Origin: Thermoplasmatota archaeon
Lineage (GTDB): Archaea > Thermoplasmatota > E2 > DHVEG-1
NCBI GenBank assembly: GCA_029939595.1
Contig: JAOZSQ010000002.1
Span: 2,761 to 66,760, forward strand
Reading direction: 5' to 3'
Length of the DNA stretch: 64,000 nucleotides
This document shows positions 1-46,270 of this stretch, piece after piece. The notes below the pieces were generated by a model that did no database searches, was not told the DNA's origin, and was given only the letters and a program-made list of their open reading frames with translations. The position numbers and the translations under genes are program-made. Each line of letters starts with the position of its first letter. Position 1 is the first letter of the stretch.

Positions 1-565
1 GTAGGAATTCCTGAAAACGCTCAGATGGCGAATACTTCATATTATCTTTGATGGATCGAATGATATCTTTACCAAGAAGTGATACATCTCGATATATCCA
101 TGCTGCCTCTTTTTGGACTGCGCCATATATGTTTTGCTTGGATAGACTTTTAAAGATCTCAGTAGGTGTTACTCCTGCAGAAGACATAGCGGAAACAAAA
201 TTTAGGGCATATGATAGATTAGCATCTATCTTTTTTCCTCGTGATTTTGCAATACTATTAGGGATCTGTAATGAAATAACATAAGTTAACCCTCCAACAA
301 TCAAGGGGAGGGCGATGAATAAACTTGTCATAATTAAACCAAGTTGTATTTGAAGAAGTGGAATGAAGATAAAAAGCAAGATAGTTACAATCAATGCAGT
401 TGAGACAATACTTAATAGCATATACAAAAGTGAAGATGCCATATAAGCCTCTTGTTTGATATGTAAATGAGCTGAGCGAAGACTAAACTCTAATGCCTTA
501 CTTGGATGTTTTCGGGTAAACGATCCAAACAATTGATATGCTTTCTTTTCTAAAGTTTTTAACAT
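1..565 (-). CDS. FlaJ/TadC-like polytopic membrane protein (type II secretion system F-domain), N-terminal part; the gene runs off the window start
   Basis: My manual minus-strand translation from the ATG at 565 has no stop down to position 1 (MLKTLEKKAYQLFGSF...LSYALNFVSAMSSAGVTPTEIFKSL...). It contains a hydrophobic TM block and a T2SS-F-like motif. It lies directly downstream of two secretion ATPases on the same strand. It is absent from the ORF track because it is truncated. Confidence 0.55.
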   Translation of the reverse strand, partial: MLKTLEKKAYQLFGSFTRKHPSKALEFSLRSAHLHIKQEAYMASSLLYMLLSIVSTALIVTILLFIFIPLLQIQLGLIMTSLFIALPLIVGGLTYVISLQIPNSIAKSRGKKIDANLSYALNFVSAMSSAGVTPTEIFKSLSKQNIYGAVQKEAAWIYRDVSLLGKDIIRSIKDNMKYSPSERFQEFL

Positions 566-587
566 ATATGTTACACCATACCATATT

Positions 588-2348
588 TTATTTATTTTTT
601 TTTAATCGGATAAAGAAATTTTTTTTTCTAGCATGAGAAGATTTTTTCAGTTTTTTTTCAGATGTGATAACATCATAAAGCGAAAAACTATTCTCATTGA
701 TATGAAATGAAGATTGTATCTCAGATGCTTTTTTAAGAAGTGACTGTTTCGGAGGGGAAGAAATCTTTGCAAGACTCTCAGATGGATTTTCAGTATATCC
801 ACTAACGATTTCCCCTATTTGTTTGAAATCACGGATCATATGTTTATGCATCCATTCCAAGATCTTCTGGCGTTGCTTTAATTCAGAACGCATTTCATCT
901 GTGGAAAGATCACGTAGCTCACGGATAGTTTCAAGAATAAAGCTTTTACCTGTATATTTAAACTCATCAGTTGATGAATCCCATTTAAAAACATGATTTG
1001 TAAGAAACTCATTGGTTTCTGAATCAACGGTAATTACCTCAATTATATCTTTACATCGCCGAACAGTTTTTCCATTAAGTTTCACCATTGACTGGATCAT
1101 AACAATATCAAGAGACTGTAACATATTACGAGGTACATTGATAGGTTTTCCTTCAAGCCGATGAATCAATGACTTCATAGAATCAGCATGGACCGTTGAA
1201 TAGGTGGTATGGCCAGTAGCCATAGCCTGAAACAATACATATGCCTCTTTTCCTCGTATTTCACCGACAAGAATGTATTCAGGTCGTTGACGAAGCGCTG
1301 CTTTCATCAGATCAAATAAATCAATTTCACCAATAAGCCTATCATTAAGAACCTCACCAAACCCTGAACGTGTGATACCGGGGATCCAGTTTGGATGAGG
1401 TAGATTAATCTCACGGGTCTCTTCAATACTTACAATTTTTGATTCTTTGGGTATAAATAAACACATTGCGTTAAGAACACTTGTTTTTCCACTTGCAGTC
1501 CCACCAGAAACCAATGCATTGGAACCATGTTCAACAGCAAGCCAAAGATATGCAAAGATCTCAGGTGACATTGTATGATACTCAATAAGATCAACAGGGG
1601 TGATTGGATCAGATCGAAACTTTCGAATTGTAAATGTAGAACCTTTCGTGGTCACCTCACCACTCAAAGTCATCTGAATACGGGAGCCATCTGGCATCGT
1701 TGCATCAAGCATAGGATTGGAAACTGAGATATGTTTACCACATTTCTGTGCAAGTTTTGTAACAAACTGGGTTAAACGATCATCAGAATCAAACAGAACG
1801 TCTGTCTCAATAGATCCAAAATCACGATGATTAATAAAAAGAGATGACTTTGCACCATCACAGCTGACATCCTCAATATGAGGATCCTTCATCAAAGGAT
1901 CAATTTTATCATAACCTAAAAAGAACCTGTTTAAATAATACAATAATTTTTTTTCAAGAAAATCATCAATAGCAATACCAAACACTTTTACAATACCATT
2001 ATACTGATCAATAAGAAACGATGTTGGATTTTCATCCAGTTCATCAAGACGTACAGTAAATCTAGATATCAGTTCATTACGAATAAACAAAAAGACATTT
2101 TGTTCATCTTTTGAGAGATATGGTTCCAAAACTCGATATGTTCTCTGTAAGGTGTCAAGATTTTTAACAACAGAAATATATGTATAAGGTGGATCAATTG
2201 GATAACAAATCAACTCCTCAACATTTTTTAAAATGATGTCGATCTGTTGATTTGTATGGCATACATTACACTGCACGGAGGCATCATCTGGATCTTTTAG
2301 ATATATGCGTGCATTACATTTTTTACATAATATAGTGTATTCATTCAT
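588..2348 (-). CDS. FlaI/PilB/GspE-family secretion ATPase (archaeal type IV pilus/archaellum assembly ATPase) with an N-terminal C4 zinc-ribbon
   Basis: Walker A is GGTASGKTS and Walker B/Asp-box is KIVSIEETREI. A His-box (TVHADS) and family-typical LRQRPEYILVGEIRG are present. The N-terminus has CKKC..x..CNVC. The gene overlaps its upstream paralog by 8 nt. Confidence 0.8.
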   Translation of the reverse strand: MNEYTILCKKCNARIYLKDPDDASVQCNVCHTNQQIDIILKNVEELICYPIDPPYTYISVVKNLDTLQRTYRVLEPYLSKDEQNVFLFIRNELISRFTVRLDELDENPTSFLIDQYNGIVKVFGIAIDDFLEKKLLYYLNRFFLGYDKIDPLMKDPHIEDVSCDGAKSSLFINHRDFGSIETDVLFDSDDRLTQFVTKLAQKCGKHISVSNPMLDATMPDGSRIQMTLSGEVTTKGSTFTIRKFRSDPITPVDLIEYHTMSPEIFAYLWLAVEHGSNALVSGGTASGKTSVLNAMCLFIPKESKIVSIEETREINLPHPNWIPGITRSGFGEVLNDRLIGEIDLFDLMKAALRQRPEYILVGEIRGKEAYVLFQAMATGHTTYSTVHADSMKSLIHRLEGKPINVPRNMLQSLDIVMIQSMVKLNGKTVRRCKDIIEVITVDSETNEFLTNHVFKWDSSTDEFKYTGKSFILETIRELRDLSTDEMRSELKQRQKILEWMHKHMIRDFKQIGEIVSGYTENPSESLAKISSPPKQSLLKKASEIQSSFHINENSFSLYDVITSEKKLKKSSHARKKNFFIRLKKNK

Positions 2349-4467
2349 GTTGTTTCACAAGAATTTTTTGAGCAACATCCTCGGGTTTTTCAAGATAATT
2401 AGCAGTTACCGATGCGACATCTTCAAACAAATAAACCTTCTCATCAACCATCCAAGATAAGACATCAGCACGACGTTTAAGCTCATCAGTCATCTCTTCA
2501 TGTTTCATATTTGTCTTAACACGGATACGCTCGAGAACAAAACTTTTTCCAGTATACGAATAAGTATCCTTAATGGGATCCCAACGGAAGACCTCATTAG
2601 TTAAAATCTCTTTTGTAGTAGGATCAATATCGATGATTTCAATTATCTGTTTACAACGACGAACTCTCTTATCTTTAACACGTGCAATAGTTTGAATACA
2701 GACAATATCAAGAGATTGCAACATAATACGAGGAATGTTGATTGGTTCACCCTCTAAACGATGAATCAAGGATTTAGCTGAATCAGCATGCACCGTTGAA
2801 TAGGTGGTATGGCCAGTAGCCATAGCCTGAAACAATACATATGCTTCTCTTCCTCGTATTTCACCGACTAGGATGTATTCAGGTCTTTGACGAAGCGCTG
2901 CTTTCATCAAATCAAATAAATCTATTTCACCTGTAAGCTTTCCACCAACAACATCACCAAAACCAGATCGAGAAACACCGGGAATCCAGTTAGGGTGAGG
3001 TAGATTAATCTCACGGGTCTCTTCAATACTTACAATTTTTGATTCACGAGGGATAAATAAACTAATTGCATTAAGAACACTTGTTTTACCACTTGCTGTA
3101 CCGCCTGATATAAGAGCACTTGAACCATGTTGCACAGCAAGCCACAAATACGCCATCATCTCAGATGACATTGTATTAAATTGAATAAGATCAGCAGGAC
3201 TAAACGGCTGCTCCTTGAACTTTCGAATTGTAAATGTAGAACCCTTCGTACTAACCTCTGTACTTAGAGTCATCTGAATACGAGAGCCATCTGGCATTGT
3301 TGCATCAAGCATAGGAGTTGAAATTGAGATATGTTTACCACATTTCTGTGCAAGTTTCATTACAAAGCTAGTCAAAACCTCTTCATCAGGGATAGCTACA
3401 TTACTTTGAATGGAGCCATGGATCCGATGATACAAAAATATAGGGACTCCTGCACCATCGCAACTAACATCTTCAATGTTAATATCCTTCATTAATGGAT
3501 CAAGAATACCAAGATTGAGACAATCCTTTTTCAGATGATAAAAAATTTTCTCTTTGGAACAATTAGATACCAAAAGCGAATAATCAGATATAATCTCATT
3601 AACTTGACGAAGTAGAATTGGTTCCTCGCCCAATTCATTCAGTTCATTAGTATCAGAAGGCATAACCTCAAAAGCCTCTTTGATAAAGGACATATGCTTC
3701 TTTTCTTCATCTGTTAGTACTATTTCAATCAAAAAATATCGTTTTTCCTTAGTCTCCTTATTTTTAAGAATGGAAGAAAAAGCAAAAGGTTCAAGAAGTG
3801 GATAACTATCAAATTCTTCCCATTCATCTATATTTTTAATACCATCTCTTTTATAAATCAATTGTTTTAAATCTTTTAATTCACTATCTGATAATGTAAA
3901 ATTATCGGTGGAAATAATGGTTTCTAATGGTTGAGACTTAACCTGTTTTTTCTTAGAAGAAGACGATGAAAACAAAGATTTTTTCTTTTTAAGCGATTTC
4001 TTTTTTTCTGTTTTTTGTTGAAGTTTATTCTTTTCTAATGGTTTATTAGATGACATATCAACTGTTTTTTGTTCTTCTGGTTTTTCATTGGATTGTTTCT
4101 GATAATCTAATAAAATTTTTTTATTGGAAATTTTGGGTGATTTTTTTGATTTAGATGAAGATAGGCTGCTAAATAATGGTTTTTTCTTTTTTTCTGTTTT
4201 TTGTTGAAGTTTATTCTTTTCTAATGGTTTATTAGATGACATATCAACTGTTTTTTGTTCTTCTGGTTTTTCATTGGATTGTTTCTGATAATCTAACAAA
4301 GTCTTTTTATTGGAAATTTTGGAAGTTTTTTTTAATAGACCAACAGAGCTAAACAAAGATCTTTTTTTAACTTTCTGTGCCGCCCTTTTTCTATTTACAC
4401 TTCCACTCTTCTTATTTAATCTTAACTTTAACTTTGTTTTCCTTTTTTGTTTCTTTTCATGAGTCAA
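2341..4467 (-). CDS. Second FlaI/PilB-family secretion ATPase paralog carrying a ~190-aa N-terminal K/S/Q-rich low-complexity extension
   Basis: The same Walker A (GGTASGKTS), IVSIEETREINLPHPNWIPG and TVHADS motifs are present as in the adjacent gene. The N-terminal 190 aa is lysine/serine-rich and contains an internal duplication. Confidence 0.8.
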   Translation of the reverse strand: MTHEKKQKRKTKLKLRLNKKSGSVNRKRAAQKVKKRSLFSSVGLLKKTSKISNKKTLLDYQKQSNEKPEEQKTVDMSSNKPLEKNKLQQKTEKKKKPLFSSLSSSKSKKSPKISNKKILLDYQKQSNEKPEEQKTVDMSSNKPLEKNKLQQKTEKKKSLKKKKSLFSSSSSKKKQVKSQPLETIISTDNFTLSDSELKDLKQLIYKRDGIKNIDEWEEFDSYPLLEPFAFSSILKNKETKEKRYFLIEIVLTDEEKKHMSFIKEAFEVMPSDTNELNELGEEPILLRQVNEIISDYSLLVSNCSKEKIFYHLKKDCLNLGILDPLMKDINIEDVSCDGAGVPIFLYHRIHGSIQSNVAIPDEEVLTSFVMKLAQKCGKHISISTPMLDATMPDGSRIQMTLSTEVSTKGSTFTIRKFKEQPFSPADLIQFNTMSSEMMAYLWLAVQHGSSALISGGTASGKTSVLNAISLFIPRESKIVSIEETREINLPHPNWIPGVSRSGFGDVVGGKLTGEIDLFDLMKAALRQRPEYILVGEIRGREAYVLFQAMATGHTTYSTVHADSAKSLIHRLEGEPINIPRIMLQSLDIVCIQTIARVKDKRVRRCKQIIEIIDIDPTTKEILTNEVFRWDPIKDTYSYTGKSFVLERIRVKTNMKHEEMTDELKRRADVLSWMVDEKVYLFEDVASVTANYLEKPEDVAQKILVKQHE
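3998..4296. repeat. Two copies of a ~115-bp near-identical direct repeat (period ~185 bp) inside the 5' coding extension of the 2341..4467 ATPase
   Basis: The sequence aagtttattcttttctaatggtttattagatgacatatcaactgttttttgttcttctggtttttcattggattgtttctgataatctaa occurs at about 4021-4110 and again at about 4206-4295. It encodes the duplicated peptide KKILLDYQKQSNEKPEEQKTVDMSSNKPLEKNKLQQKTEKKK. Confidence 0.8.
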
Positions 4468-4731: not shown

Positions 4732-4805
4732 GGGCCTATGAGGTAGCTTGGATATCCTACTGGCCTTCGGAGCCAGTTACTGGGGTTCGAATCCCCATAG
4801 GTCCG
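4732..4805 (+). tRNA. tRNA-Arg, anticodon TCG
   Basis: A cloverleaf can be drawn by hand. The 7-bp acceptor is GGGCCTA/TAGGTCC with one G-U pair. The anticodon stem is CTGGC/GCCAG with loop CTTCGGA, giving anticodon TCG. The T arm is TGGGG-TTCGAAT-CCCCA and the discriminator is G. CCA is not encoded. Confidence 0.8.
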
Positions 4806-29407: not shown

Positions 29408-31015
29408 TTGGAAGAAATGAAAAAAATGATATTTGTCAATTTAGTATCTCTAATTATTATCACTTTAATATTAATACAACCTGTATCCTCAAACATATCT
29501 TGTTCACAGAACGAAATAATCATTGTGGATAATGAAGGAGATGGTGATTATCAAACCATACAACAAGCAATAGATAATGCAAATTCGGGCGATATAATCC
29601 AAATATATAGTGGAATTTACAATGAGAAACTAATCATTCAAAAAGAAAGAATCACACTTAAAGGAATTGATCATGAATTGGGAGCTGGAACTGATACTGA
29701 ATATCCAATCATCAATGGAGATCAGATTGGAAATGTTATCGAAATATATGGAAAACATTGTCAAATAACATCATGTATCATCCAAAATAGTGGACATGGT
29801 ATTTTTGATGCAGGAATTTTCATTCTTTCAAATGAAGTAATAATATCTGCAAATGGAATTGTTAGTAATCAGTATGGTATTCTTGTAAATAATTGTACTG
29901 AAAACATTATAGAAAATAATTACATTCTTTCAAACACTATGGATGGGATATACCTTCTTTTCACAGAAGAAAACATCATTTCAAATAATATCATTAGGGA
30001 AAATGGTTTCCAAGGAATGTTTATGTATGAGGCAAATAAAAATACCATAACTGAAAACACTTTTTCACTGAATGGTAAAGATGGTATTCATCTAAGGAAT
30101 ACCTGTATGAACAATGAAATAACAAAAAACATAATTCATTCAAATAGTATCGATGGAATAAAAATAATGGATTCAAATGTTTATTATAATAATTTAAACA
30201 ATAATGAAATTTATTCAAATGGCTGGAATGGGGTTCATATTGTCAATGGACAATCAAATATCATATCCGATAATATGATTTATTTAAACTTATTAAATGG
30301 AATTCAAATTGGAAACGCAGATAACAATAGAATCATACGAAATACCATCCAAGACAATAAAGAAGAAGGCATTGTCTTTTTGTTCTCAGGATCTCAAAAT
30401 AATCAAATATACTATAATAATATAATTAATGATAATGCATTTGATGGTGGAAAAAACATATGGGATGATGGAAGAGATGCCGGGGGAAACTACTGGTCAT
30501 ATTACAAGGGGTTAGATGTGGATGGAGATGGCATTGGCGATACACCTTATATTATTGAGGGAATGGGAAATATGGATAATACACCATTCATTGACCCTTT
30601 ATATCCGCCTCAAACTCCAAGTCAACCAAGAGGGCCTACAATTGGAGTACCCGGAACAAGTTACACATATAGAACAACTTCATCAGATAATCTGCACAAT
30701 AAGATACAATATGGGTGGGATTGGAATGGAGATGATGTTGTGGATGAATGGACTTTTTTTTATTCACCTGAAGAACCATGTGAAACATCTTATATTTGGA
30801 ATCAAAATGGAACATATCAAATAAAAGTGAAAGCAATGGATGATCAGGGTTTTCAAAGTGATTGGTCACAACCATTATCAATTACGATGCCAAAAGATCC
30901 AAAAAACAAAATAGACATTATAGGAAATTTCATATTCAACTTTTGTCAACAGATTCTATATCGTATTTATGCTATAATTGTGGCTGACCAACAACCAAAT
31001 ATTGCAAAATACTAG
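29408..31015 (+). CDS. Secreted parallel beta-helix (NosD/CASH-like) protein ending in a PKD-like domain and an aromatic amphipathic C-terminal tail
   Basis: Signal peptide present. PbH1 repeats are present. The CASH C-terminal motif is DVDGDGIGDTPY. The PKD-like block is WDWNGDDVVDEW...NGTYQIKVKAMDDQGFQSDWS. The tail is PKDPKNKIDIIGNFIFNFCQQILYRIYAIIV. Confidence 0.65.
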   Translation: MEEMKKMIFVNLVSLIIITLILIQPVSSNISCSQNEIIIVDNEGDGDYQTIQQAIDNANSGDIIQIYSGIYNEKLIIQKERITLKGIDHELGAGTDTEYPIINGDQIGNVIEIYGKHCQITSCIIQNSGHGIFDAGIFILSNEVIISANGIVSNQYGILVNNCTENIIENNYILSNTMDGIYLLFTEENIISNNIIRENGFQGMFMYEANKNTITENTFSLNGKDGIHLRNTCMNNEITKNIIHSNSIDGIKIMDSNVYYNNLNNNEIYSNGWNGVHIVNGQSNIISDNMIYLNLLNGIQIGNADNNRIIRNTIQDNKEEGIVFLFSGSQNNQIYYNNIINDNAFDGGKNIWDDGRDAGGNYWSYYKGLDVDGDGIGDTPYIIEGMGNMDNTPFIDPLYPPQTPSQPRGPTIGVPGTSYTYRTTSSDNLHNKIQYGWDWNGDDVVDEWTFFYSPEEPCETSYIWNQNGTYQIKVKAMDDQGFQSDWSQPLSITMPKDPKNKIDIIGNFIFNFCQQILYRIYAIIVADQQPNIAKY

Positions 31016-34759: not shown

Positions 34760-36355
34760 ATGGGGACAAAAAAATTAATTTCAATAATGCTTGTATTATT
34801 AATGTTTTCATCAATTTCTCAAATTGGAATTGCAACTCAGAAAACAAATCCACAATTAAAAGATTCAATTAAAGAAAAACTTGATCTTATACAAGATGCA
34901 ATTAACGATAAAAAAGCAGATTGGGTTGCTGGTCATAATAATATTTTTACAGATAAAATAGATTTTATTGAAGAGTTTCTTGGATGCAATCTCAATGAAA
35001 GTGAGATTATTAATCAAGATGAACCAATTTCAACTTCTGATCTTCCAGCATCTTATGATTGGAGGAATGTTGATGGATTGAACTATGTAACTTCAATAAA
35101 AAATCAAGCAAGTTGTGGAAGTTGTGTGGGATTTGCAACTATTGGTGCATTAGAGGCTGTTGTTCAAATTGAGGCAGGAGAAATTTTTGATTGTGATTTA
35201 TCAGAATCACATTTATTTTTTTGTGGTGGAGGTTCTTGTGGTGGAGGATGGTTTCCAGAAGAAGCTACTGATTTTGTGGAAAATGTAGGAGTAGTTGATG
35301 AACTCTGTTTTCCATATAGTTCTTATGATTTAAACTGTGATCAAAAACAATCAAATTGGAAATCGCGAGTAATTAAAGCAAAAAATACTGGATCTACCTC
35401 AGAAAATCAAAATATAAAAGATGCATTAATTACATATGGACCTCTTTTAACAACATTTAAAGTTTATGATGATTTCAGTAGTTATAATGGGGGCATCTAT
35501 GAGCACGTATGGGGAAATCAAGTTGGAGGCCATGCAGTAGTAATCATTGGTTATAATGATGATCCGGGATATTGGATATGTAAAAATAGTTGGGGTGAAG
35601 GTTGGGGTGAAGACGGATTCTTCAATATTAAATATAGAGAATGTAAAATAGATAAAAAGGTATATTTCTTTGATCAAATAATTGGAAATATTCAACCCTC
35701 AAAACCTAAAATCATTCAACCAATAAATGGGGAAAATTCTCTTGATACAGATATTACTCTTCAATGGGATCAAAGTTATGATATTGATGGAGATTTTATT
35801 TCATACGCTGTTTATTTAAATGAAGGTCATAAAATTGATTTAGATTCAGAACCAATTGTATCAGGACTAGCAACAAATTCATATGAAATCAATAAATTAA
35901 AAAAAGACACAATTTATTCATGGCAAGTTGTTTCAGAAGATGCACAAGGATCTCAACATAGCGTTGGAAAAAATTTATTTTTCACTCGATCGCCATTTGC
36001 GCCAATAATATCAGGCCCTAAACAAATTAAAAATGATAAATCCTATACATATATTGCCTCAACTGAGGATACTGATGGATCAGAATACTATTGGTTTTTT
36101 CAATGGGGTGATGATGAAAATTCAGGTTGGCTAGGCCCATATAATTCAGGTGAAAAAGTAAGTGCGAGCCATACTTGGAGCGATGATGGAGATTATACTA
36201 TTAAAGTTAGATATAAAGAAGATGGTATTGAAAGTGATGTGGGTTCGATAGAGATAAGCAACACAAAAACTAGAACGGGTTTTTTTAATTTCATTTGTGA
36301 GTTTTTAAATCACAATTTACTAAAATATTTTTTTCCACAACAATTATTTTTATAA
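34760..36355 (+). CDS. Secreted papain-family (C1A) cysteine peptidase followed by an FN3/PKD-like region and the shared PKD-like C-terminal module with tail
   Basis: Signal peptide present. The active-site Cys is QASCGSCVGFA, the His is GGHAVVIIGY and the Asn/Trp is KNSWGEGWG. The C-terminal block is FQWGDDENSGWLGPYNSGE...DYTIKVRYKEDGIESDVGS. The tail is KTRTGFFNFICEFLNHNLLKYFF. Confidence 0.75.
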   Translation: MGTKKLISIMLVLLMFSSISQIGIATQKTNPQLKDSIKEKLDLIQDAINDKKADWVAGHNNIFTDKIDFIEEFLGCNLNESEIINQDEPISTSDLPASYDWRNVDGLNYVTSIKNQASCGSCVGFATIGALEAVVQIEAGEIFDCDLSESHLFFCGGGSCGGGWFPEEATDFVENVGVVDELCFPYSSYDLNCDQKQSNWKSRVIKAKNTGSTSENQNIKDALITYGPLLTTFKVYDDFSSYNGGIYEHVWGNQVGGHAVVIIGYNDDPGYWICKNSWGEGWGEDGFFNIKYRECKIDKKVYFFDQIIGNIQPSKPKIIQPINGENSLDTDITLQWDQSYDIDGDFISYAVYLNEGHKIDLDSEPIVSGLATNSYEINKLKKDTIYSWQVVSEDAQGSQHSVGKNLFFTRSPFAPIISGPKQIKNDKSYTYIASTEDTDGSEYYWFFQWGDDENSGWLGPYNSGEKVSASHTWSDDGDYTIKVRYKEDGIESDVGSIEISNTKTRTGFFNFICEFLNHNLLKYFFPQQLFL

Positions 36356-36467
36356 TTTGGCAGATTTCCATAAAATAGAACAATTCAATATAATAAATAA
36401 CATAATTAAAAATTTAAAAAGTATATGCATTATTTTTTATAATAATGATAATTTAAAAACTATTGAA

Positions 36468-36720
36468 CTTTTTGGATGTAATCACAAATACGATAATTTT
36501 TTTTTACGATTCGTTTAAATTTTTAATAAAAGCCTTCATATAATATGTATCATAATTATAGCTGTGGTAATAATTAGTAGTGGAATCATATGTAATGTCA
36601 AGAAAAATATTAATTGTTTATTATTACATTTATATATTTCCCTTCTTGTTTTCATATACGCCCCTCCACTCTAATTATATTACCAATATAATCAAAATTA
36701 TAAATATCATTATCTATAAT
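36468..36720 (+). repeat. Copy A (orphan) of a ~230-bp repeated upstream/leader element
   Basis: It shares the blocks ttacgattcgttt(t)aaatttttaat.aaagccttcatata, ggtaataat...gtagtgga.t.atatgt, and ttcc.ttcttgttttcat.t...cccc.ccact..aa...atattacca with copies B and C. No ORF follows it. Confidence 0.7.
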
Positions 36721-36777
36721 AAAATTATGATTTTAAAAAACAATAAAATTTAAAGATAAAAATGATTGAATAAGCTT

Positions 36778-37018
36778 ACTTTTTGGATGTAATTACAAAA
36801 AGATTATATTTTTTTACGATTCGTTTTAATTTTTAATGAAAGCCTTCATATATTTCTTAATATCATTGTGTGTTAATACTAACGGTAATAATGATGTAGT
36901 GGATTAATATGTTTACAAATATTAAGGCTAATATTCCTAACATTGTAATATTTCCTTTCTTGTTTTCATGTTTACCCCGCCACTACAACAATATTACCAA
37001 AAAAATAGGGGGTCATAA
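36778..37018 (+). repeat. Copy B of the ~230-bp repeated element, immediately upstream of the 37019 BNR-protein gene (includes the GGGGG Shine-Dalgarno-like site)
   Basis: Same conserved blocks as copy A. It ends in aaaaatagggggtcataaATG. Confidence 0.7.
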
Positions 37019-38641
37019 ATGACAAAAAAAAGAAATTTTAATATGAAAAAAGTTATAATGTTAGGCGTAGTAATGATGCTTTGTTTAACGGCAATTCAAT
37101 TTGGAACAGCATCAGAAGAAATAAATGAAAATGATTTAACGATAAAAAAGTTAAATTCAGTTAGGCAACATAGAGAAGTATCATTAAAATCTGAAAAATT
37201 AACAAAAGAAAAACATATTCAAAATGATTACAACTCAATTGCAATTAATGGTAACATGCCAATTATGATCACAGAATCTGATTGTCAAAACCCTGTTATT
37301 GCAACAGATGGAAATAATATTCTTGTAATGGCCGAGGAATATCAAGGCTCAATGTCATCTGATTTAATAATGACTTATTCATCAGATGCTGGAAATACCT
37401 GGTCAGATTTATCTGGTTTTATAACAGAAGATATATTTGAGGAAAAAGCATCAATTGATTATTGTCACAATGGTGAATTTCAGGCATATGGTACATATTT
37501 ACCAGATCCAATGGTTGGAACATTATCTTTAATTCATTTTCCAAGTATGATTGATCCAGAAATGGCCTATAAAGATTCAGAAGGTTGGACAATGTGGTCT
37601 CTTGATCTTTCAACGTTTAATGATTTTTATAGTATAGATGTTGCAGGATATCCTCATGGATCAATTGCACCGGCACCAGATTTCCATGGTGTCGTAACAG
37701 TGATTGGCAATAATGAAGATGGTGAAACAATAGAAAATTTTTATGAGACTGAAGGTAATGGGATAGGTGCATGTTTTTTATCATTTGTAGGGGATTTAGG
37801 AGATAAAATATCTATAGATATTGACATTTCAACAGCAACATATTATGAGGCAATGGAGCTGAGTAATGAACCAGACATGATTGAAGATGGAGTATTTTTA
37901 GAATCATGTTGGGTTGAGCCTGGAAATGAAAACTGGTGGGAAAATGATTGGCCAGTATTTATTTTTGAAGGAGCACATAATCCTGATATCGTTGCAGGTG
38001 GTGGTAGTTGTTATTGTGTCTGTGAAGTTGGAAATGACATCGTATGTTATTATTCAAATGATAATGGTGCAAATTTCCAATCAAAAACTATAGCAAGTAA
38101 TGGAAAATATCCTGCTGTTTCAATAATAGATAACACTGTAATTTGTTCATTTACTCGAGATAATAACATTTTTACAGTTGTTTCAAAAGATAATGGAAAT
38201 ACGTGGGAAGAAACAAAGATAAATGATGTAAGTGGAAGTGCAATTGAGCAGATGCAATGTACTGATGTTTCAGGTTCAAATGTGGTCTGGACCGATGATA
38301 GAAATGGTAACTATGGAGTATACATTAGTAGTGCAGCAGAAGTAGAATTCCCAATAGTAGAAATTCAAAGTATTTCTGGAGGTTTTGGTCTTTCTGCAAA
38401 CATTATAAACTCTGGTACCGCTGATGCAAATGACATTGATTGGAGTATAGCTTTTGATGGTGGCGTTTTTATTGGCGGTGAAACATCTGGAACAATTCAA
38501 ACTCTTGCAGCAGGAGAAAGCACAACTGTTAAAACTGGATTAGTTTTTGGAGTTGGAAAGACTGATATAACAATATCTGTTGGTTCTGCATCTGAACAAA
38601 GATCTGGAAATGTTTTTCTATTTTTTGTACTAGGGATATAA
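37019..38641 (+). CDS. Secreted BNR/Asp-box repeat protein (sialidase-like beta-propeller) with a C-terminal CARDB-like region
   Basis: Signal peptide present. Asp-boxes are YSSDAGNTWSD, SNDNGANFQS and SKDNGNTWEE. The C-terminal block is VEIQSISGGFGLSANIINSGTADANDIDWSIAFDGG. Confidence 0.55.
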   Translation: MTKKRNFNMKKVIMLGVVMMLCLTAIQFGTASEEINENDLTIKKLNSVRQHREVSLKSEKLTKEKHIQNDYNSIAINGNMPIMITESDCQNPVIATDGNNILVMAEEYQGSMSSDLIMTYSSDAGNTWSDLSGFITEDIFEEKASIDYCHNGEFQAYGTYLPDPMVGTLSLIHFPSMIDPEMAYKDSEGWTMWSLDLSTFNDFYSIDVAGYPHGSIAPAPDFHGVVTVIGNNEDGETIENFYETEGNGIGACFLSFVGDLGDKISIDIDISTATYYEAMELSNEPDMIEDGVFLESCWVEPGNENWWENDWPVFIFEGAHNPDIVAGGGSCYCVCEVGNDIVCYYSNDNGANFQSKTIASNGKYPAVSIIDNTVICSFTRDNNIFTVVSKDNGNTWEETKINDVSGSAIEQMQCTDVSGSNVVWTDDRNGNYGVYISSAAEVEFPIVEIQSISGGFGLSANIINSGTADANDIDWSIAFDGGVFIGGETSGTIQTLAAGESTTVKTGLVFGVGKTDITISVGSASEQRSGNVFLFFVLGI

Positions 38642-38740
38642 TAATTATCCCACATCTTCTTTTTTTTATTTTCAACATAATAATGAACCATATTGGGAAA
38701 ATAATTAATATAATTTGAATGAAACAACAAAAAAATAAAA

Positions 38741-38955
38741 AATTTTTACTGTTTGTTTAAAGATTCAATAAAAGCGTTCATATATTTGTTATTATGATTA
38801 TAATATAATAATATTGGTAATAATCATGTAGTGGATTATATGTATATGCAAGATGTCAGACATAGTATCAAGTCATAGAAATTTCGCTTTCTTGTTTTTA
38901 TATTTACCCGGCCACTACAAAAATATTACCAGAAAAATTAGGGGGTAAAAAATAA
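38741..38955 (+). repeat. Copy C of the ~230-bp repeated element, immediately upstream of the 38956 BNR-protein gene
   Basis: The conserved blocks are aaagcgttcatata, ggtaataatcatgtagtggattatatgt, and ttcgctttcttgtttttatatttacccggccactacaaaaatattaccagaaaaattagggggtaaaaaataaATG. Confidence 0.7.
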
Positions 38956-40587
38956 ATGAAAAGAAAACAAATTGGAAAATGGGCTATATCATTATTAATC
39001 ATTGGATTAATGATAACAAGTACTCTTGTAATGCCCGCAGAAGAGGCAGAAAATAACGAATTTGCAAAAACATATGAAAAACTTGAAGTAAAAAAGGTTA
39101 CCAATAAGTTTTCATTTGTATCAGATTCATTGGAACTAAATAAAATAACAAAAGCATCATATTTACCAAGAGAAATAAAAAATCAAATTGGTATTGATCT
39201 TCCTATACTGGGTCTTGAAGGAATGGATGTATTAAATCCACATTTAGCAACAGACGGTGGAGGAAATATTTTGTTAGCTGGTGAAGGTTATGAAAGTTCA
39301 TTTAATTCTGATATTTATTTTAGATCATCAATAGATGGTGGACAATCTTGGTTACCCGAAGATGGTACAATCTGGTTTGATCTTGCTAGTGGAGGCATAA
39401 TTCCTGAAAAACCGGTTGTAGATTATTCAGGTGATTTAGGGGCTATTGGATCATTTTTACGATTAAATCCTGAGGGAATTCCCCAGTTTGACTTCGATAG
39501 CATTACTGACCCTGAAGCAGGCGATGGATGGCAACTATTAACATGGAATGATAATGATGAAGTTGATAGCATTGATGTTTGTGGTTGGAATAGTCAGTTT
39601 TCACCTGCTCCAGATTTTTCAAAAGGAATGATAGTATACACAGCAGATGATGATACTACAACCAACGTGATGCATCTTTTATGGTCAGACAGTGAAACAG
39701 GTGGTCAAAGTCTTTGGACTGGAAGTGGAGATGCAGACTATGAATGGGAAAATGTTAAGACTGATAACGATCTAGTAACGGGAATGCATTGGGAAGTATA
39801 TGAAATTTCATCAAATCAAGGAGAATTTGAACCAGGTATTGAGATTGAATGGTGTAGACTTGATGGAACAAATGATTGGTGGCAAAATAATGATTGGTAT
39901 GCAACAGATGTAATTGAAGGGGCAAGTAGTCCAGATATTGATTCAGCAAATGGAAAAATGTATTGTGTCTTTGAGTTAGATGGTGGTATTTACTGTGCAT
40001 ATTCAAATAATGATGGTGGAAATATTGACGTAATGGAGTTATCATCAACTGGAACAAACCCACATGTATCAATAGCAGGAGATAGTGTAATTATTACTTA
40101 TATCGATAATGGCAATCTTATCTCAGCTATCTCTGAAAATTCAGGGTCAAGTTGGGAAGAGAGCACTGTTAATGATGAAAGTGGAACCGTGATGGATGAT
40201 ACTCATAGTTCTCATATTGCAGGAGGTTATATGGCATGGACCTATGAAGGGTCAGAGTATACCTCACTTCTTTTTGATGTGGCGGGTGTTGATGTACCAA
40301 TCATAGAGATTGAAAGTGTATCTGGAGGTTTTGGGGTAAACGCAGTTATTGCAAACACTGGAACAGCAGACGCAACTGATGTTGATTATTCAATAACGGC
40401 AACCGGGGGAATTTTAGGAATGATCAATAAAGAATCTAGTGGAACAATATCGGTTAATGCAGGAGGGTCACAAACAATTTCGTTACCAATGATCATTGGA
40501 GTTGGTGCAGTTACCATTGAACTTATTGTTGGATCTGCTAGTGAAACTATCTCGGGAACACAACTATTTGTCTATACAAATATATAG
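38956..40587 (+). CDS. Secreted BNR/Asp-box repeat protein, paralog of 37019..38641
   Basis: Asp-boxes are RSSIDGGQSWLP and SENSGSSWEE. The C-terminal block is IEIESVSGGFGVNAVIANTGTADATDVDYSITATGG. It is collinear with the preceding paralog. Confidence 0.55.
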   Translation: MKRKQIGKWAISLLIIGLMITSTLVMPAEEAENNEFAKTYEKLEVKKVTNKFSFVSDSLELNKITKASYLPREIKNQIGIDLPILGLEGMDVLNPHLATDGGGNILLAGEGYESSFNSDIYFRSSIDGGQSWLPEDGTIWFDLASGGIIPEKPVVDYSGDLGAIGSFLRLNPEGIPQFDFDSITDPEAGDGWQLLTWNDNDEVDSIDVCGWNSQFSPAPDFSKGMIVYTADDDTTTNVMHLLWSDSETGGQSLWTGSGDADYEWENVKTDNDLVTGMHWEVYEISSNQGEFEPGIEIEWCRLDGTNDWWQNNDWYATDVIEGASSPDIDSANGKMYCVFELDGGIYCAYSNNDGGNIDVMELSSTGTNPHVSIAGDSVIITYIDNGNLISAISENSGSSWEESTVNDESGTVMDDTHSSHIAGGYMAWTYEGSEYTSLLFDVAGVDVPIIEIESVSGGFGVNAVIANTGTADATDVDYSITATGGILGMINKESSGTISVNAGGSQTISLPMIIGVGAVTIELIVGSASETISGTQLFVYTNI

Positions 40588-40783
40588 ACAACCTCTCTTT
40601 TTTCTTTTTTTTATTAATGATTGAAAAAATATTTGTAAATATTTATATATGTTGAAAAAAAATAATATATATTAACATTATTTGTAATAAATTACAAAAT
40701 TTAATAACTAATTTAACATTTGTTCAAAAATATAATCAAAAAATATTTATTGTAGTTCTTATCATAATATATATGGAGATATT

Positions 40784-42202
40784 ATGAAAAAAAAATTGGT
40801 TGTTTGTATAATAATAAGTCTATTTTTAATTAGCTATATTCCTTCGGGTTATGCGTTAATAAATAATCAGAGTATTGATCAGATGGAAAGAGGTCAATAC
40901 AAGTTGGTTGATAAGAACACTTTTTCAAAACAAAATTTAGAACATGGATTAATGAGGCCTGATGGTAACACGTTAAAAGAATGGAAAGAAGATTATTTTA
41001 AGGCAGAAAAAGCATATATTAATCCAAAATTAGCAAATAATATCATTGCAACTTCAAGTTATAGTATTTTAGATCTGTTGAATTATGTACCATCTGAAAG
41101 AAATCAGGGTTGGTGTGGAAATTGTTGGGCGTGGCCTGCTACAAGTGTTGTTGAAATCGCCCTCAATGTTCAAGAAGGGATTTATGAACGTTTATCTGTA
41201 CAATATATAAATTCTTGTGGATCTCAGGTGGGCGTAGGTTGTTGTGATGGAGGAAACCTAGATATTTTCTGCAGGTTTTATCGAAAAACAGATATAACGA
41301 TTCCATGGTCAAATACAAATGCGGATTGGCAAGATAATAGGGCTCAATGTGATACTTCATGCGATAGCATCTCAACAACACCATATTATCCAATATCTTC
41401 AATTTATGCAAGAACAATTGAAACACATGAAATTTCAGAAGAACAAGCAATTTCAAATATAAAAAATATACTTCATCAGCAGAAAGGCGTCTATTTTAGT
41501 TTTATATTGCCCGATGATGAATATCTAACTCATTTCAATGATTTTTGGAGTGATCAAAAAGAGGAAGATGTGTATAATATTGACTGGGCATGTGGTAAAG
41601 AATATATTGAAGATGAAGGTGCAGGTCATGCTGTTTTATGTGTAGGATACAACGATGAAGAGGGTATAGAAAATGATTATTGGATTATGCTGAACAGTTG
41701 GGGTATCACATCTGATAGATCCACAGGATTATTTCGTATGAATATGCATATGGATTATGATTGCACAATTGTTTATCAGAATCATGATTACTATTCATTT
41801 GATTTTGAAACATTAAATGTAACATTTACATCAGATGATGGAGCACCAAACCCTCCTGAAATACAAGGACCTAGCTCAGTTAAAAAAGATGAATCGAATA
41901 CATATCAAATAACAACAATAGATGTTCAAAACGATGAAGTATTTTATAAAATTGATTGGGATGATGGAACGGTAGATGGTTGGATTGGTCCATATTTGTC
42001 AGGTGAAACCATTGAAGTAAATCATTCTTGGGCAAAAAAAGATACTTATGTTATACATGTAAAAGCAAAGGATATCAATGAAGATGAAAGTCTTTGGTCT
42101 ACATTTGAAGTTAGTTTGTCAAAGAGAAAAGACATGGATTTTACATGGATACAATGGTTGTTTCAAAGAATCAATATTCTTTTTCCTTTTATTGTAAAAT
42201 AA
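40784..42202 (+). CDS. Secreted papain-family (C1) cysteine peptidase with the shared PKD-like C-terminal module and tail
   Basis: The active-site Cys is NQGWCGNCWAWPA, the His is AGHAVLCVGY and the Asn/Trp is LNSWG. The C-terminal block is KIDWDDGTVDGWIGPYLSGETIEVNHSWAKKDTYVIHVKAKDINEDESLWS. The tail is KRKDMDFTWIQWLFQRINILFPFIVK. Confidence 0.7.
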   Translation: MKKKLVVCIIISLFLISYIPSGYALINNQSIDQMERGQYKLVDKNTFSKQNLEHGLMRPDGNTLKEWKEDYFKAEKAYINPKLANNIIATSSYSILDLLNYVPSERNQGWCGNCWAWPATSVVEIALNVQEGIYERLSVQYINSCGSQVGVGCCDGGNLDIFCRFYRKTDITIPWSNTNADWQDNRAQCDTSCDSISTTPYYPISSIYARTIETHEISEEQAISNIKNILHQQKGVYFSFILPDDEYLTHFNDFWSDQKEEDVYNIDWACGKEYIEDEGAGHAVLCVGYNDEEGIENDYWIMLNSWGITSDRSTGLFRMNMHMDYDCTIVYQNHDYYSFDFETLNVTFTSDDGAPNPPEIQGPSSVKKDESNTYQITTIDVQNDEVFYKIDWDDGTVDGWIGPYLSGETIEVNHSWAKKDTYVIHVKAKDINEDESLWSTFEVSLSKRKDMDFTWIQWLFQRINILFPFIVK

Positions 42203-42341: not shown

Positions 42342-43232
42342 ATGAACAAAACAAACATATCAATAATTATTCTAATTTTGATTTTACTAGTAACACAATT
42401 TCAAGGTTGTATTACTAATGAACCCACTGATAATATATTTTATGAGAAGAATACATTTTATGTAGATATCGATGGTTCAACAAACTTTAGTTCAATTCAG
42501 AATGCAATTAATGCAGCACCGGCTAATTATACAATCTCTATCTTAAATGGGCATTATAAAGAGAACTTGATAATAAACAAACCATTAACGATAGTGGGTG
42601 AAAACCCTTTAACAACGTTTATTGATGGAAATGACACAGAAGATGTAATAGTTATTAATAATGATAGTGTAACGATCTCAAATTGTAGCATTTTTGGAAG
42701 TGGAAGAACTCAAAATGATGCAGGCATCCATATTAATTCTAAATATGTAATTATTAAAAATAATATAATATATGATAACAAATGTGGAATTTATGCAAGA
42801 ACTGCATCTTATGCTGATATTAATAATAATACTTTCAAATTAAACAATGAATATGGGGTTTATGTATATTCTTCATCAAATACAAAGCTTATTGACAATG
42901 AATTTTATTCAAATGATTGTAGTTTAAGAATCAAAGGATCTCAACATTGTGAAGTAATCCGAAATCGATTTAATGATAGTATGCAGGGGATGTACTTTTG
43001 TTGTGGAGCAAAACAAAATACAGTTTATCACAATACATTTCTAAATCATACTAAATGGAATGCAGATGATCAAGTTGGATCAAATAGTTGGAATAGTATA
43101 AATCTTTCAGAAGGTAATTATTGGGATGATTACTTTGGGGTGGATGAAAATGATGATGGTATTGGTGATAGTGCATACAATGTTACAAATACTGGCAGAA
43201 AAGATTTTTTCCCTTTAATGAATCCAATATAA
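42342..43232 (+). CDS. Secreted/lipoprotein-like parallel beta-helix (NosD/CASH-like) protein, short form lacking the PKD+tail module
   Basis: Signal peptide with FQGC (lipobox-like). PbH1 repeats present. The C-terminal motif DENDDGIGDSAY is homologous to the 29408 protein. The protein stops right after the CASH motif. Confidence 0.6.
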   Translation: MNKTNISIIILILILLVTQFQGCITNEPTDNIFYEKNTFYVDIDGSTNFSSIQNAINAAPANYTISILNGHYKENLIINKPLTIVGENPLTTFIDGNDTEDVIVINNDSVTISNCSIFGSGRTQNDAGIHINSKYVIIKNNIIYDNKCGIYARTASYADINNNTFKLNNEYGVYVYSSSNTKLIDNEFYSNDCSLRIKGSQHCEVIRNRFNDSMQGMYFCCGAKQNTVYHNTFLNHTKWNADDQVGSNSWNSINLSEGNYWDDYFGVDENDDGIGDSAYNVTNTGRKDFFPLMNPI

Positions 43233-44083: not shown

Positions 44084-46270
44084 ATGAATAAAATTTATTA
44101 TTTATTTATAATTATAAGTTTATTAATTAATTCATCCATTGCCATTAGCCTTAATCAAGATGAAGATTTAAAAATAATATATAACTTTGATTCTCCTTCA
44201 TTTCAAAAGATACAGATAAATGGAACAATTTATGATGAGATCACAATTCCAAATCTTTCAACGATGGCAGACCCTGGATTACCAAGTTTGCCTATAAAGG
44301 GTGGTTATATTAGTATACCATATAATTCAAATGTTAAAAGTATATCTGCAACATATTCTAACCAGATAAACTTAGGGAAAGGATTTATTATAAAACCAGG
44401 GTCAACACCCGTTCCAATGTCACATCAAGAACAAGCCCAAGCACCAATTGCAAATACTCAAATTTATACATCTGATACTATGTATCCAGGGACATTATAT
44501 TCTGAGATTGGAACTTATAAATGTAAAGGATTTGAAATTCTTGTTCTTACGTTACATCCTATTCAATACATACCTAAAACTGGAGAAATAATTTTTTATT
44601 CCTCTATCGAAATTACTATTGAAGTTTCAGAAAAACAGAATAATTATTTAGAATCACGAGGCTTAGAAGAAGATATAATTCAAATTAATAATATGGTTGA
44701 TAATCCCCAAATATTGAATTCATATCCTCTAAAAACAAAAACAACATCAATGGAATCTTATGATTATCTTATTATTACTACTCAGGAATTAAAAGAAGGA
44801 TTTATCCCATTACAACAGACACAAGAAAAAAGAGGGATTAAAACACAAATAAAAACACTTCGTGATATTACTTTAACTCCGAATTATATAACACCAGAAG
44901 ATATCAGAGAATATATAAAACAGCAATATCAACATAATGGAATTGAGTATGTATTAATTGGTGGTGATGCAGATATTGTACCTGCAAAAATGCTTTATGT
45001 CTATGGACTTGATGAGGAGAAATGGCCATATGAAACATTTTTACCTTCGGACTTGTATTATTCTTGTTTAGATGGAACCTATAATAATGATGGGGATGAT
45101 CGTTGGGGTGAACCAACAGATGGAGAAAATGGAAATGATGTTGATCTTTTCGCTGAGGTATATGTAGGTAGAGCAAGTGTTGGGGATTTAATTGAAGTAG
45201 GATATTTTGTAAATAAAACTATCTCTTATTTATCCACCTCTAATTCTAATGAGTATATCAATACATTTCTTATGGCAGGGGAATATCTTGGTAGCCATGG
45301 TGTTGCTAGTTGGGGTGGAAATTATCTAGATCTTCTTATTGATGAGGCATCTGAAGATGGTTATATAACATCCGGCATTCCTTCTGAAAAATTTCAAATT
45401 AATAAATTATACGATCGTGAAAATGAATGGACTGCAAATGATATGATCAATGCAATAAACGATGGTGTTCATGTAATAAATCATGATGGACATTCTAATT
45501 ATGGGTATAATATGAAGATGGTAAATGGTCATGTTTATTCATTAACAAATGATGAGTATTGTTTTGCTTATTCAGTTGGATGTATGGCAGGTGGCTTTGA
45601 TGATCCTCAAGGGTCTGACTGTTTTGCTGAATATCTTACTGTAAAAACTGATCATGGAGCATTTGCAGCTATCATGAATGCAAGGTATGGTTGGTTTTGG
45701 TCTCATAGTACTGATGGTGATGGAACAAGATTTGCACGTGAATTTTGGGATAGTGTTTTTGGTGAAAAAACACCTGTGATAAGTAAAGCAAATCAAGATT
45801 CAAAAGAAGATAACCTGTATCTCATAGGTCGTTCTTGTATGAGGTGGACATATTATGAATTAAATCTCTTTGGAGATCCAACTATTTCACTTCGTGTAAG
45901 TGAACCCCCAAATACACCAGATATGCCAAATGGACCTCAAACTGGAAAAATAAAAATAAATTACGAATATGCAACAACTTCAATTGATTCTGAAGGGGAT
46001 GATATATATTATCTCTTTAATTGGGGAGATGGAACGTATTCTGAATGGCTTGGCCCTTATTCTTCAGGGGAAGAAATCAAAGAAGAACATCAATGGCTTG
46101 AACATGGCGATTATCAAATACAAGTGAAAGCAAAGGATGAACATGGTGCAGAAAGTGAATGGTCAGATTATCTTATACTAAACATTCCAAAAAATAAAAA
46201 CATTCAATTTCCGTTTCTTGAATGGATTATAGAACAAATTTATTTTCTTAAAATGTTTTTTCTTAATTAG
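44084..46270 (+). CDS. Secreted clan-CD (C25 gingipain-like) cysteine peptidase with an N-terminal propeptide-like region and the shared PKD-like C-terminal module with tail
   Basis: The His block is VINHDGHSNYGY and the Cys block is FAYSVGCMAGGFDD. The C-terminal block is FNWGDGTYSEWLGPYSSGEEIKEEHQWLEHGDYQIQVKAKDEHGAESEWS. The tail is PKNKNIQFPFLEWIIEQIYFLKMFFLN. Confidence 0.65.
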   Translation: MNKIYYLFIIISLLINSSIAISLNQDEDLKIIYNFDSPSFQKIQINGTIYDEITIPNLSTMADPGLPSLPIKGGYISIPYNSNVKSISATYSNQINLGKGFIIKPGSTPVPMSHQEQAQAPIANTQIYTSDTMYPGTLYSEIGTYKCKGFEILVLTLHPIQYIPKTGEIIFYSSIEITIEVSEKQNNYLESRGLEEDIIQINNMVDNPQILNSYPLKTKTTSMESYDYLIITTQELKEGFIPLQQTQEKRGIKTQIKTLRDITLTPNYITPEDIREYIKQQYQHNGIEYVLIGGDADIVPAKMLYVYGLDEEKWPYETFLPSDLYYSCLDGTYNNDGDDRWGEPTDGENGNDVDLFAEVYVGRASVGDLIEVGYFVNKTISYLSTSNSNEYINTFLMAGEYLGSHGVASWGGNYLDLLIDEASEDGYITSGIPSEKFQINKLYDRENEWTANDMINAINDGVHVINHDGHSNYGYNMKMVNGHVYSLTNDEYCFAYSVGCMAGGFDDPQGSDCFAEYLTVKTDHGAFAAIMNARYGWFWSHSTDGDGTRFAREFWDSVFGEKTPVISKANQDSKEDNLYLIGRSCMRWTYYELNLFGDPTISLRVSEPPNTPDMPNGPQTGKIKINYEYATTSIDSEGDDIYYLFNWGDGTYSEWLGPYSSGEEIKEEHQWLEHGDYQIQVKAKDEHGAESEWSDYLILNIPKNKNIQFPFLEWIIEQIYFLKMFFLN

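Follow-up and report, generated by a model that had tools for sequence, protein, structure and literature searches.

Archaeal mRNAs typically carry short leaders or none, and conserved cis-regulatory RNA structures described in archaea are, to our knowledge, few; the archaeal riboswitches in Rfam include those for thiamine pyrophosphate (TPP) and fluoride. In bacteria, the 5' untranslated region (UTR) of Escherichia coli ompA and the leader of Bacillus subtilis aprE are 5'-terminal stabilising leaders, carried by the mRNAs of abundant secreted or envelope proteins, and the cry3A mRNA of Bacillus thuringiensis contains the STAB-SD element. Here, we analyse a stretch of 64,000 nucleotides (hereafter the window) from a Thermoplasmatota archaeon (GenBank assembly GCA_029939595.1, contig JAOZSQ010000002.1, positions 2,761 to 66,760 of the forward strand), in which one element occurs in three copies (A, B and C), two of them directly before paralogous genes for secreted beta-propeller proteins (genes B and C). 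The three elements are a real and previously uncatalogued structured 5' leader RNA together with its promoter. We consider it likely that each copy joins a promoter module to a structured 5' leader RNA in gene orientation, placed before secreted beta-propeller (BNR-like) genes, and probable that the element works as a cis-acting structured RNA. The initial annotation had already read it as a duplicated promoter with a long structured leader, and this reading is now backed by conservation, recurrence, folding energy and covariation in a sister type of leader found before homologous genes.

In function, the element would, by analogy, resemble the ompA and aprE leaders most. As in these, a leader of 100-150 nt precedes the gene of an exported protein, a helix (termed P1 here) is predicted to stand at or near the 5' end, and the Shine-Dalgarno (SD) sequence is predicted to be accessible and single-stranded downstream of the structure. 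Unlike them, the leader is archaeal, P1 is a long-range helix closing 60-95 nt rather than a small terminal hairpin, and conservation extends to the helix sequence and the inner loops; the sequences themselves are not similar to those of ompA or aprE. With riboswitches, the element shares a P1-closed multi-helix 5' UTR domain just upstream of the ribosome-binding site, and a P1 that covaries across distant genomes, whereas it belongs to no Rfam family, has no unpaired core common to its variants and no SD-sequestering alternative above chance, and serves a single gene family. Like the STAB-SD element of cry3A, the sister-type leaders have, close to the 5' end and far from the start codon, a purine run resembling an SD (GGAGG, GGAAAG); here, however, the run is paired within P1 to an anti-SD-like strand and would thus not be free for 16S rRNA, and the variant of the window itself (GGUAAUAAU...GUAGUGG) does not resemble an SD.

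Among uncultured Thermoplasmata of sediments, wetlands and hypersaline lakes, many share this long leader, whose long-range helix covaries in the sister variant and which is tied to one secreted-protein family among extracellular peptidase genes. Such peptidases are thought to let Thermoprofundales, which are related archaea, degrade detrital protein (PMC6461988). If the leader does control mRNA stability or translation, it would offer a handle on exoproteome regulation in uncultured organisms, as well as a new entry for RNA family databases; and should the orphan copy work in trans, archaea would gain a rare example of a regulatory RNA derived from a leader.

Repeat copies and promoter layout

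The repeat that the initial annotation had described in three copies is present, and its positions hold, except that the similarity of copy C begins about 27 nt farther upstream than first given, at 38714, in a repeat-family analysis. The leaders are 71% (A-B), 76% (B-C) and 57% (A-C) identical, while unrelated AT-rich intergenic 120-mers of the window reach 40% ± 8%, with a maximum of 55%; in the 3' half, the B and C leaders are 89% identical. Both copies directly abut the ATGs of their genes, as had been claimed, and the two proteins share 33% identity by BLASTP (35% over aligned codons), with 45% nucleotide identity at third codon positions. Since the leaders are so much more alike than the proteins and the third codon positions, their identity does not decay like that of flanking DNA, and simple neutral duplication, which the earlier reading had kept as its refuting case, does not account for them. 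To judge from sequence comparison, the leaders are kept alike by selection or by recombination restricted to the leader, and probably by both. Copy A is followed by no gene, in agreement with the initial annotation: SD and start codon are missing, and only an unconserved 57-codon GTG open reading frame (ORF) at 36580-36753 lies within the element. A fourth copy was not found in the window with the covariance model R1.

From 5' to 3', the parts follow one another as a far-upstream T5 box (ACTTTTTGGATGTAAT.ACAAA), a TTYGTTTWAA box, a 15-nt spacer, a TATA-like TTCATATA, a gap and the 5' strand of P1, and the arrangement of box, spacer and TATA is common to copies A, B and C and to nearly all related leaders. 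Archaeal TATA boxes sit at about -26/-27. In six leaders with a perfect TTTATATA TATA, the first base of P1 lies 18-24 nt downstream, that is, at about -5 to +2; P1 follows the TATA by 23 nt in copy A and by 30-31 nt in copies B and C (about +8). From these distances, P1 probably includes the extreme 5' end of the mRNA. The far-upstream box of copy A has relatives (TTTTTAGATGAAACAACAA) in L018, L024, L036 and L009, and is probably a terminator of the upstream gene and/or an upstream promoter element.

Two observations concern the boxes as such. In all window-type loci, a TTTTT(A/G)GATG(A/T)AA..ACAA box is found about 45 nt 5' of the TATA, and the T5 run that opens it could also terminate the upstream gene. 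In almost all leaders, a TTYGTWYAAA or TTTGTACAA-like box stands about 15 nt 5' of the TATA; the same type of box occurs at 40719-40728, before the papain-like peptidase gene at 40784, whose leader is short. This box may be a binding site for a common transcription regulator. The motif is short, and is not enriched across the window (6 matches, 4.9 expected). In addition, a 326-aa protein with two AsnC-type helix-turn-helix domains is encoded near the propeller gene on unrelated contigs (L041:3512-4492 and L039:242-1222), and is a candidate regulator of the conserved promoter boxes.

Structured domain and related leaders

P1 is a long closing helix of about 19 bp (GGUAAUAAU.AUGUAGUGG / CCACUACAA.AAUAUUACC), which encloses about 77 nt. 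The heptamers GTAGTGG and CCACTAC, pointed out in the initial annotation as complementary, are indeed exact reverse complements in copies B (36896-36902 / 36980-36986) and C (38828-38834 / 38912-38918), 77 nt apart, and form the inner part of this longer, interrupted helix; in copy B, GGTAATAATGATGTAGTGG (36884-36902) faces CCACTACAACAATATTACC (36980-36998), with 17 of the 19 positions paired. The single mismatch noted earlier in copy A is present (3' heptamer CCACTCT), and is accompanied by one G.U wobble. Inside P1, the short helices AUAUG/CAUAU and CAAGA/UCUUG flank a variable hairpin, and are followed by a pyrimidine block, UUCUUGUUUUCAU, and a C-rich tract. Downstream of P1, B and C alone continue with an A-rich linker (about 8 nt), the SD AGGGGGU and the ATG.

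The minimum free energy (MFE) folds of all three copies have the same architecture. For the structured domains, the MFE and z-score are -29.2 kcal/mol and -4.8 in copy A, -31.5 kcal/mol and -5.7 in copy B, which is the best-folding intergenic window of the 64 kb, and -27.6 kcal/mol and -3.0 in copy C; copies A and C score 109 and 138 bits with R1. Against dinucleotide shuffles, the z-scores of 16 leaders, whose boundaries were set after the helix had been seen, span -1.7 to -6.6 (median near -4.2). As an unbiased control, every intergenic region of the window was folded in 125-nt segments of either strand: outside the element, the 242 segments average z 0.05 (standard deviation 1.05), and those of the element are the extremes, with z -5.2. 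One other well-folding window (161-285, minus strand) stood out in the coarse scan (z -4.4), and lost significance on refolding (z -1.4). When the full leaders of B and C were folded with the first 25 coding nucleotides, P1 had a pair probability of 1.00 in both, and the SD core was unpaired with a probability of 0.79 in B and 0.98 in C. Of the seven window-type leaders that precede a gene, six have an SD unpaired with a probability of 0.65-0.98 (0.65-0.86 in most of the relatives), the exception being L036 (0.09). Among 23 full leaders, the P1 state is the MFE or lies at most 0.9 kcal/mol above it in 22, and the SD is unpaired in 14 when P1 is enforced.

Altogether, 45 loci with homologs of gene B were collected, with leaders from metagenomes and metagenome-assembled genomes, and the same promoter-leader layout is found before homologs in many metagenomic contigs. 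When reference genomes were scanned with the protein as anchor, four loci came up, none of them from the source genome. About 25 distinct leaders have a common layout of box, TATA, a closing helix spanning 57-96 nt, A-rich linker, SD and ATG. In the window type (L009, L018, L024, L036 and L028, besides the window itself), the arms are (G/A)UAGUGG and CCACUA(C/U), usually with outer GGUAAUAA / UUAUUACC. The sister type, represented by at least 16 leaders, combines a 5' strand rich in purines and a 3' strand rich in pyrimidines around a conserved GUA...UAC, as in the P1 strands GGAAAGUAG/CUACUUUCC, AAGGAGGUAG/CUACCUCCUU and CUCGGAAAAGUA/UACUUUUCCGAG. The two types are linked by their position before homologous genes, the promoter layout, the GUA/UAC core and a motif of UUCAUAU plus a C-rich stretch, and L013c is intermediate between them. 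Models R1 and R2 do not detect the other type (R1 misses the sister type except for L013c, at E 0.03-0.08, and R2 misses the window type); applied to 337 kb of related loci and to the window, they find the element only before this gene family, besides copy A and one marginal orphan-like match. Homologs that lack the element and have a short intergenic region or leader are L030, L033, L038, L039, L043 and the second gene of L008.

The propeller genes often form tandem arrays of two or three distant paralogs with 26-38% identity (L012/L013/L041, L032, L037, L038), and in several arrays there is one structured leader per gene, the leaders of a genome being more alike than the proteins. At L028:8001-8051, and likewise in L029, the public gene call begins within the leader; the homology-supported ATG is at about 8049, with the element upstream.

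Compensatory changes, which the initial annotation had proposed to look for with RNAalifold, are plentiful in the sister type and scarce in the window type. For the former, 14 leaders were aligned with MAFFT without structural information, both arms being free of gaps, and RNAalifold returned a 12-bp P1 with compensatory changes in 9 of the 12 pairs. The P1 cells of this alignment are 91% paired, compared with 45-58% when the partner is slid by 1-3 columns; double-change cells number 30 against 10 ± 2.6 after shuffling (none of 500 shuffles reaches 30), and the covariation score is 0.548 against 0.275. When the arms are anchored on GUA...UAC, the in-register pairs comprise 98 Watson-Crick, 8 G.U and 1 A.C, and a series leads from GUAG/CUAC over GUAG/CUGC (L037a) to GCAG/CUGC (L006), via a U.G intermediate. 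The excess of G.U over A.C, 8 to 1, and the U.G intermediate point to a helix that acts as RNA of the gene strand, and not as DNA or as RNA of the opposite strand; in three of four cases, folding of the reverse complement gives the weaker z-score. For the window type, seven sequences aligned on R1 are 89% paired, as opposed to 31-59% with slid partners, and one pair, the outer pair of GUAGUGG/CCACUAC, covaries cleanly (G-C three times, A-U three times and G.U once).

At gathering thresholds, Rfam 15 recognises only a tRNA (4732-4805) in the whole window. A permissive search of 36300-39100 gave five unrelated matches of 15-20 bits (E 0.76-6.8), far under threshold, and no description of the motif was found in a literature search.

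Proposed action and competing readings

The best available reading of the function, which we put forward tentatively, is that of a 5'-end clamp or stabiliser, possibly with a bound factor. The promoter module, with its upstream box, TTYGTWYAAA box and TATA, would start a transcript in which P1 pairs a segment at, or at most about 8 nt from, the predicted 5' end with a segment 60-95 nt downstream. P1 would thereby enclose variable hairpins and a pyrimidine- or C-rich stretch, and would be followed by an unstructured A-rich linker with the SD, and then by the start codon. The leader would act in cis after transcription, with P1 locking the 5' end in a duplex while the SD stays exposed; such a design would stabilise the mRNA and keep it translatable, as would suit an abundantly made secreted protein. 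The conserved sequence of P1 and the conserved internal loops may dock a trans-acting factor. Recombination probably homogenises the leaders that distant paralogs carry in one genome. For copy A, transcription into a non-coding RNA of its own, of about 230 nt, is probable, unless it is a very recent relic.

Several points weigh against this reading and the structural argument beneath it. In the window type, the arms hardly vary: covariation is confined to 2 of 25 pairs, and by most measures the shuffle controls are not surpassed, so that the structure there rests on conserved complementarity, energy and analogy with the sister type; the common origin of the two types is, in turn, inferred from context. 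The sequences of the sister covariation set had been picked after the helix was already seen in them. Competing folds occur among the leaders, with P1 probabilities of 0-0.5 in L004, L013c, L014, L027, L036 and L037b. The transcript start, the leader length and the expression of copy A are predictions from promoter geometry. Finally, a simple stabiliser would not need a conserved helix sequence, internal loops or homogenisation within genomes, which hint at a specific partner.

A more far-reaching reading is an undescribed archaeal post-transcriptional circuit, of which the leader would be the cis part: a genome-specific trans factor (protein, small RNA or metabolite) would read P1 and the loops of all paralog leaders, free-standing copies such as A and the L039 unit would be decoys or competitors in trans, and the propeller family would be co-regulated in sediment Thermoplasmata. 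We hold this to be unlikely. A rival to the clamp is a riboswitch-like or factor-responsive switch, in which a ligand, a protein or temperature would shift the P1 state, with its free SD, to one in which the C-rich tract or the 3' strand of P1 pairs with the SD; this also seems rather unlikely. It has in its favour the position of a P1-closed multi-helix domain directly upstream of the SD, the homogenisation of leaders within genomes, the ensembles of L013c, L004 and L014, which favour non-P1 folds, and the junction nucleotides conserved around a variable distal hairpin in the window type, a shallow sample of seven sequences. The C-rich tract (UACCCC / GCCCCUCC) beside the 3' strand of P1 could pair with the SD AGGGGGU, its sequence being complementary (duplex energies of -9.6 to -12.3 kcal/mol), and in L013c, L012a and L016 the P1 strands are CCUCC-like (3') and GGAGG-like (5'). 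This complementarity is, however, no better than that of composition-matched shuffles (mean z -0.55, p<0.05 in 2 of 23 leaders), and the predicted folds do not support a designed OFF state that sequesters the SD, which is mostly unpaired in the window copies; some members of the family may yet contain a switch. Nor is there an unpaired core conserved across variants: the sister interior (14 leaders) has a mean column identity of 44% with five invariant columns, and P1 is the best conserved part. Moreover, there is no Rfam match, and the gene family offers no clue to a ligand.

It is quite improbable that the element, or at least copy A, is primarily the gene of a trans-acting small non-coding RNA, for example a decoy for a leader-binding factor, from which the gene-fused copies were derived. 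Copy A has its own box and TATA, retains P1, P2, P3 and the C-rich tract, has ATCAAAAT in place of the SD AGGGGGT, lacks an ORF, and is followed by T5 and T7 runs ahead of the TATA of copy B, which are candidate archaeal terminators by sequence. Its structured core is nearer to leaders of other organisms, L024 (74%) and L018 (69%), than to B (65%) and C (60%), the variable middle included (72% to L018, 51% to B, 29% to C), which argues against long decay; on these comparisons it looks maintained, not decayed. A comparable unit of promoter, helix and T-run is present in L039, and distal promoter units are found in L001, L003 and L007. On the other hand, copy A is the single such copy in the window, no orphan was found in the closest relatives L018, L024, L036 and L009, the P1b of copy A has a mismatch, and the L039 match is marginal (E 1.9). 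The upstream boxes of A and B, 90% identical, suggest a recent rearrangement, after which A may have lacked the time to decay. If its promoter fires, copy A would yield a separate RNA of about 230 nt; alternatively, it may be the leader of a recently deleted paralog.

Recombination among the copies is evident, and is one of the points in favour of a plain segmental duplication or a DNA-level element (an inverted repeat resembling a miniature inverted-repeat transposable element (MITE), or paired operator sites) without a role for RNA structure. From the likeness of the A and B boxes, with an A core nearer to L024 and L018, copy B is, on sequence comparison, a chimera of an A-like upstream part and a C-like leader. 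The copies, whose arms are inverted repeats of about 19 bp, lie within a tandem paralog array, and the conserved upstream boxes indicate that DNA promoter elements are present as well. Nevertheless, this reading is largely refuted, and we consider it very improbable: conservation is far above that of the adjacent coding DNA, the arms change fully between genomes and yet stay complementary, via G.U and not A.C, the position relative to TATA and ATG is fixed, and there are no dispersed copies in about 340 kb searched with the two models. A MITE in particular was rejected, as copies occur only between the TATA and ATG of one gene family at a fixed distance, apart from orphan A, with arms covarying via G.U.

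Leaders are also homogenised within genomes. Gene C carries a window-type leader although L027, whose protein is 45% identical to its product, has a sister-type leader, and all three paralogs in the genome of L012/L013 have a P1 of the GGAGG type. Gene conversion by itself may explain this homogenisation, as may selection for fit to a common trans-acting partner.

Candidate free-standing units outside the window were seen at two kinds of place. At L039:13188-13273, between two C25 peptidase genes, a TATA-like box is followed by an 11-bp G+C-rich helix, GGGGTCTAGAC / GTCTAGATCCCC, enclosing TTTTCATTTCTTTTCTTCCTCCCTC, and then by a T-run and a second promoter with a short leader (z -3.85, with only a marginal R2 match). 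In the close homologs L001:200-560, L003:1850-2200 and L007:1100-1470, a distal promoter precedes about 190 non-coding nt ending in a long T-run, and the proximal promoter has a short leader; these double-promoter units may be another arrangement of the orphan type.

Other kinds of element were considered for the leader itself. In copy B, an ATG ORF of 37 codons runs along the leader (36909-37022) and overlaps the main start as ATGA. An upstream ORF or leader peptide was rejected: the same frame is open in A, B, C and L024 but interrupted by stops in L009 and L018; a third-position bias was not seen in the leader ORFs by eye, and the open frames are probably a by-product of the pyrimidine-rich sequence. 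An RNA thermometer of the ROSE or fourU kind was set aside, the SD and AUG lying outside the structured domain in the window copies. A U-run after P1 is not present, and neither a kink-turn (tandem G.A) nor a bulge-helix-bulge was seen on inspection by eye against the consensus, which was no formal test.

Gene products and genomic setting

The coordinates of the copies, their parts and the neighbouring genes are given in Table 1. The product of gene B matches, at 100% identity, a hypothetical protein of Thermoplasmatales archaeon ex4572_165. Its Pfam matches (BNR_2, BNR and CARDB) are all under the curated cut-offs, and its AlphaFold model (mean predicted confidence, pLDDT, 80.6) comprises an N-terminal hydrophobic helix, a beta-propeller and a C-terminal beta-sandwich. 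With this model, Foldseek returned sialidases, GH43 enzymes and other propellers at low TM-scores, so that the fold search and Pfam indicate a generic propeller only, with no pointer to a ligand or regulatory signal. The gene C protein belongs to a clade different from that of gene B.

Table 1. Positions of the element copies, their parts and the surrounding genes in the window
Feature	Position	Strand	Remarks
Copy A	36467-36711	+	No gene downstream
Copy A far-upstream box	36467-36488	+	T5 run, ACTTTTTGGATGTAATCACAAA; counterpart of the B box 36778-36799 (90% identical)
Copy A promoter	36510-36542	+	TTCGTTTAAA box 36510-36519, 15 nt, TATA-like TTCATATA 36535-36542
Copy A structured domain	36566-36684	+	P1 36566-36583 / 36666-36684; C-rich CCCCTCC 36661-36667
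Copy A inner helices	P2 36588-36592, P2' 36653-36657; P3 36599-36603, P3' 36643-36648	+	P2 ATATG, P2' CATAT; P3 CAAGA, P3' TTCTTG
Copy B	36778-37018	+	Ends at the ATG of the gene 37019-38641
Copy B promoter region	36778-36852	+	T5 box 36778-36799, T7 run 36809-36815, TTCGTTTTAA box 36820-36829, TATA-like TTCATATA 36845-36852
Copy B structured domain	36884-36998	+	Inner helices, pyrimidine block TTTCCTTTCTTGTTTTCAT, C-rich CCCCGCC 36975-36981
Copy B linker, SD and start	36999-37021	+	A-rich linker; SD AGGGGGT 37007-37013; start codon 37019-37021
Gene B	37019-38641	+	540 aa; secreted beta-propeller, C-terminal CARDB-like domain; weak BNR/Asp-box matches
Copy C	38714-38955	+	Ends at the ATG of the gene 38956-40587
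Copy C promoter region	38714-38784	+	Upstream box 38714-38731, TTTGTTTAAA box 38752-38761, TATA-like TTCATATA 38777-38784
Copy C structured domain	38816-38930	+	P1 38816-38834 / 38912-38930; C-rich CCCGGCC 38907-38913
Copy C linker, SD and start	38931-38958	+	A-rich linker; SD AGGGGGT 38940-38946; start codon 38956-38958
Gene C	38956-40587	+	543 aa; paralog of gene B
Papain-family C1 peptidase genes	34760-36355 and 40784-42202		Neighbours of the element
NosD / beta-helix protein genes	29408-31015 and 42342-43232		Neighbours of the element
C25 peptidase gene	44084-46270		Neighbour of the element

The element is embedded in a series of genes for secreted proteins, in a window with a G+C content of 32%. 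Peptidases of the sort found around it are characteristic of protein-degrading sediment Thermoplasmata (PMC6461988). Elsewhere in the window, two large adjacent ORFs on the minus strand (588-2348 and 2341-4467) have stretches of 300 nt and 168 nt in common, at 85% identity and an offset of exactly 1600 nt, and within the second of them (3997-4336) a 154-nt unit is repeated with 95% identity at a spacing of 186 nt.

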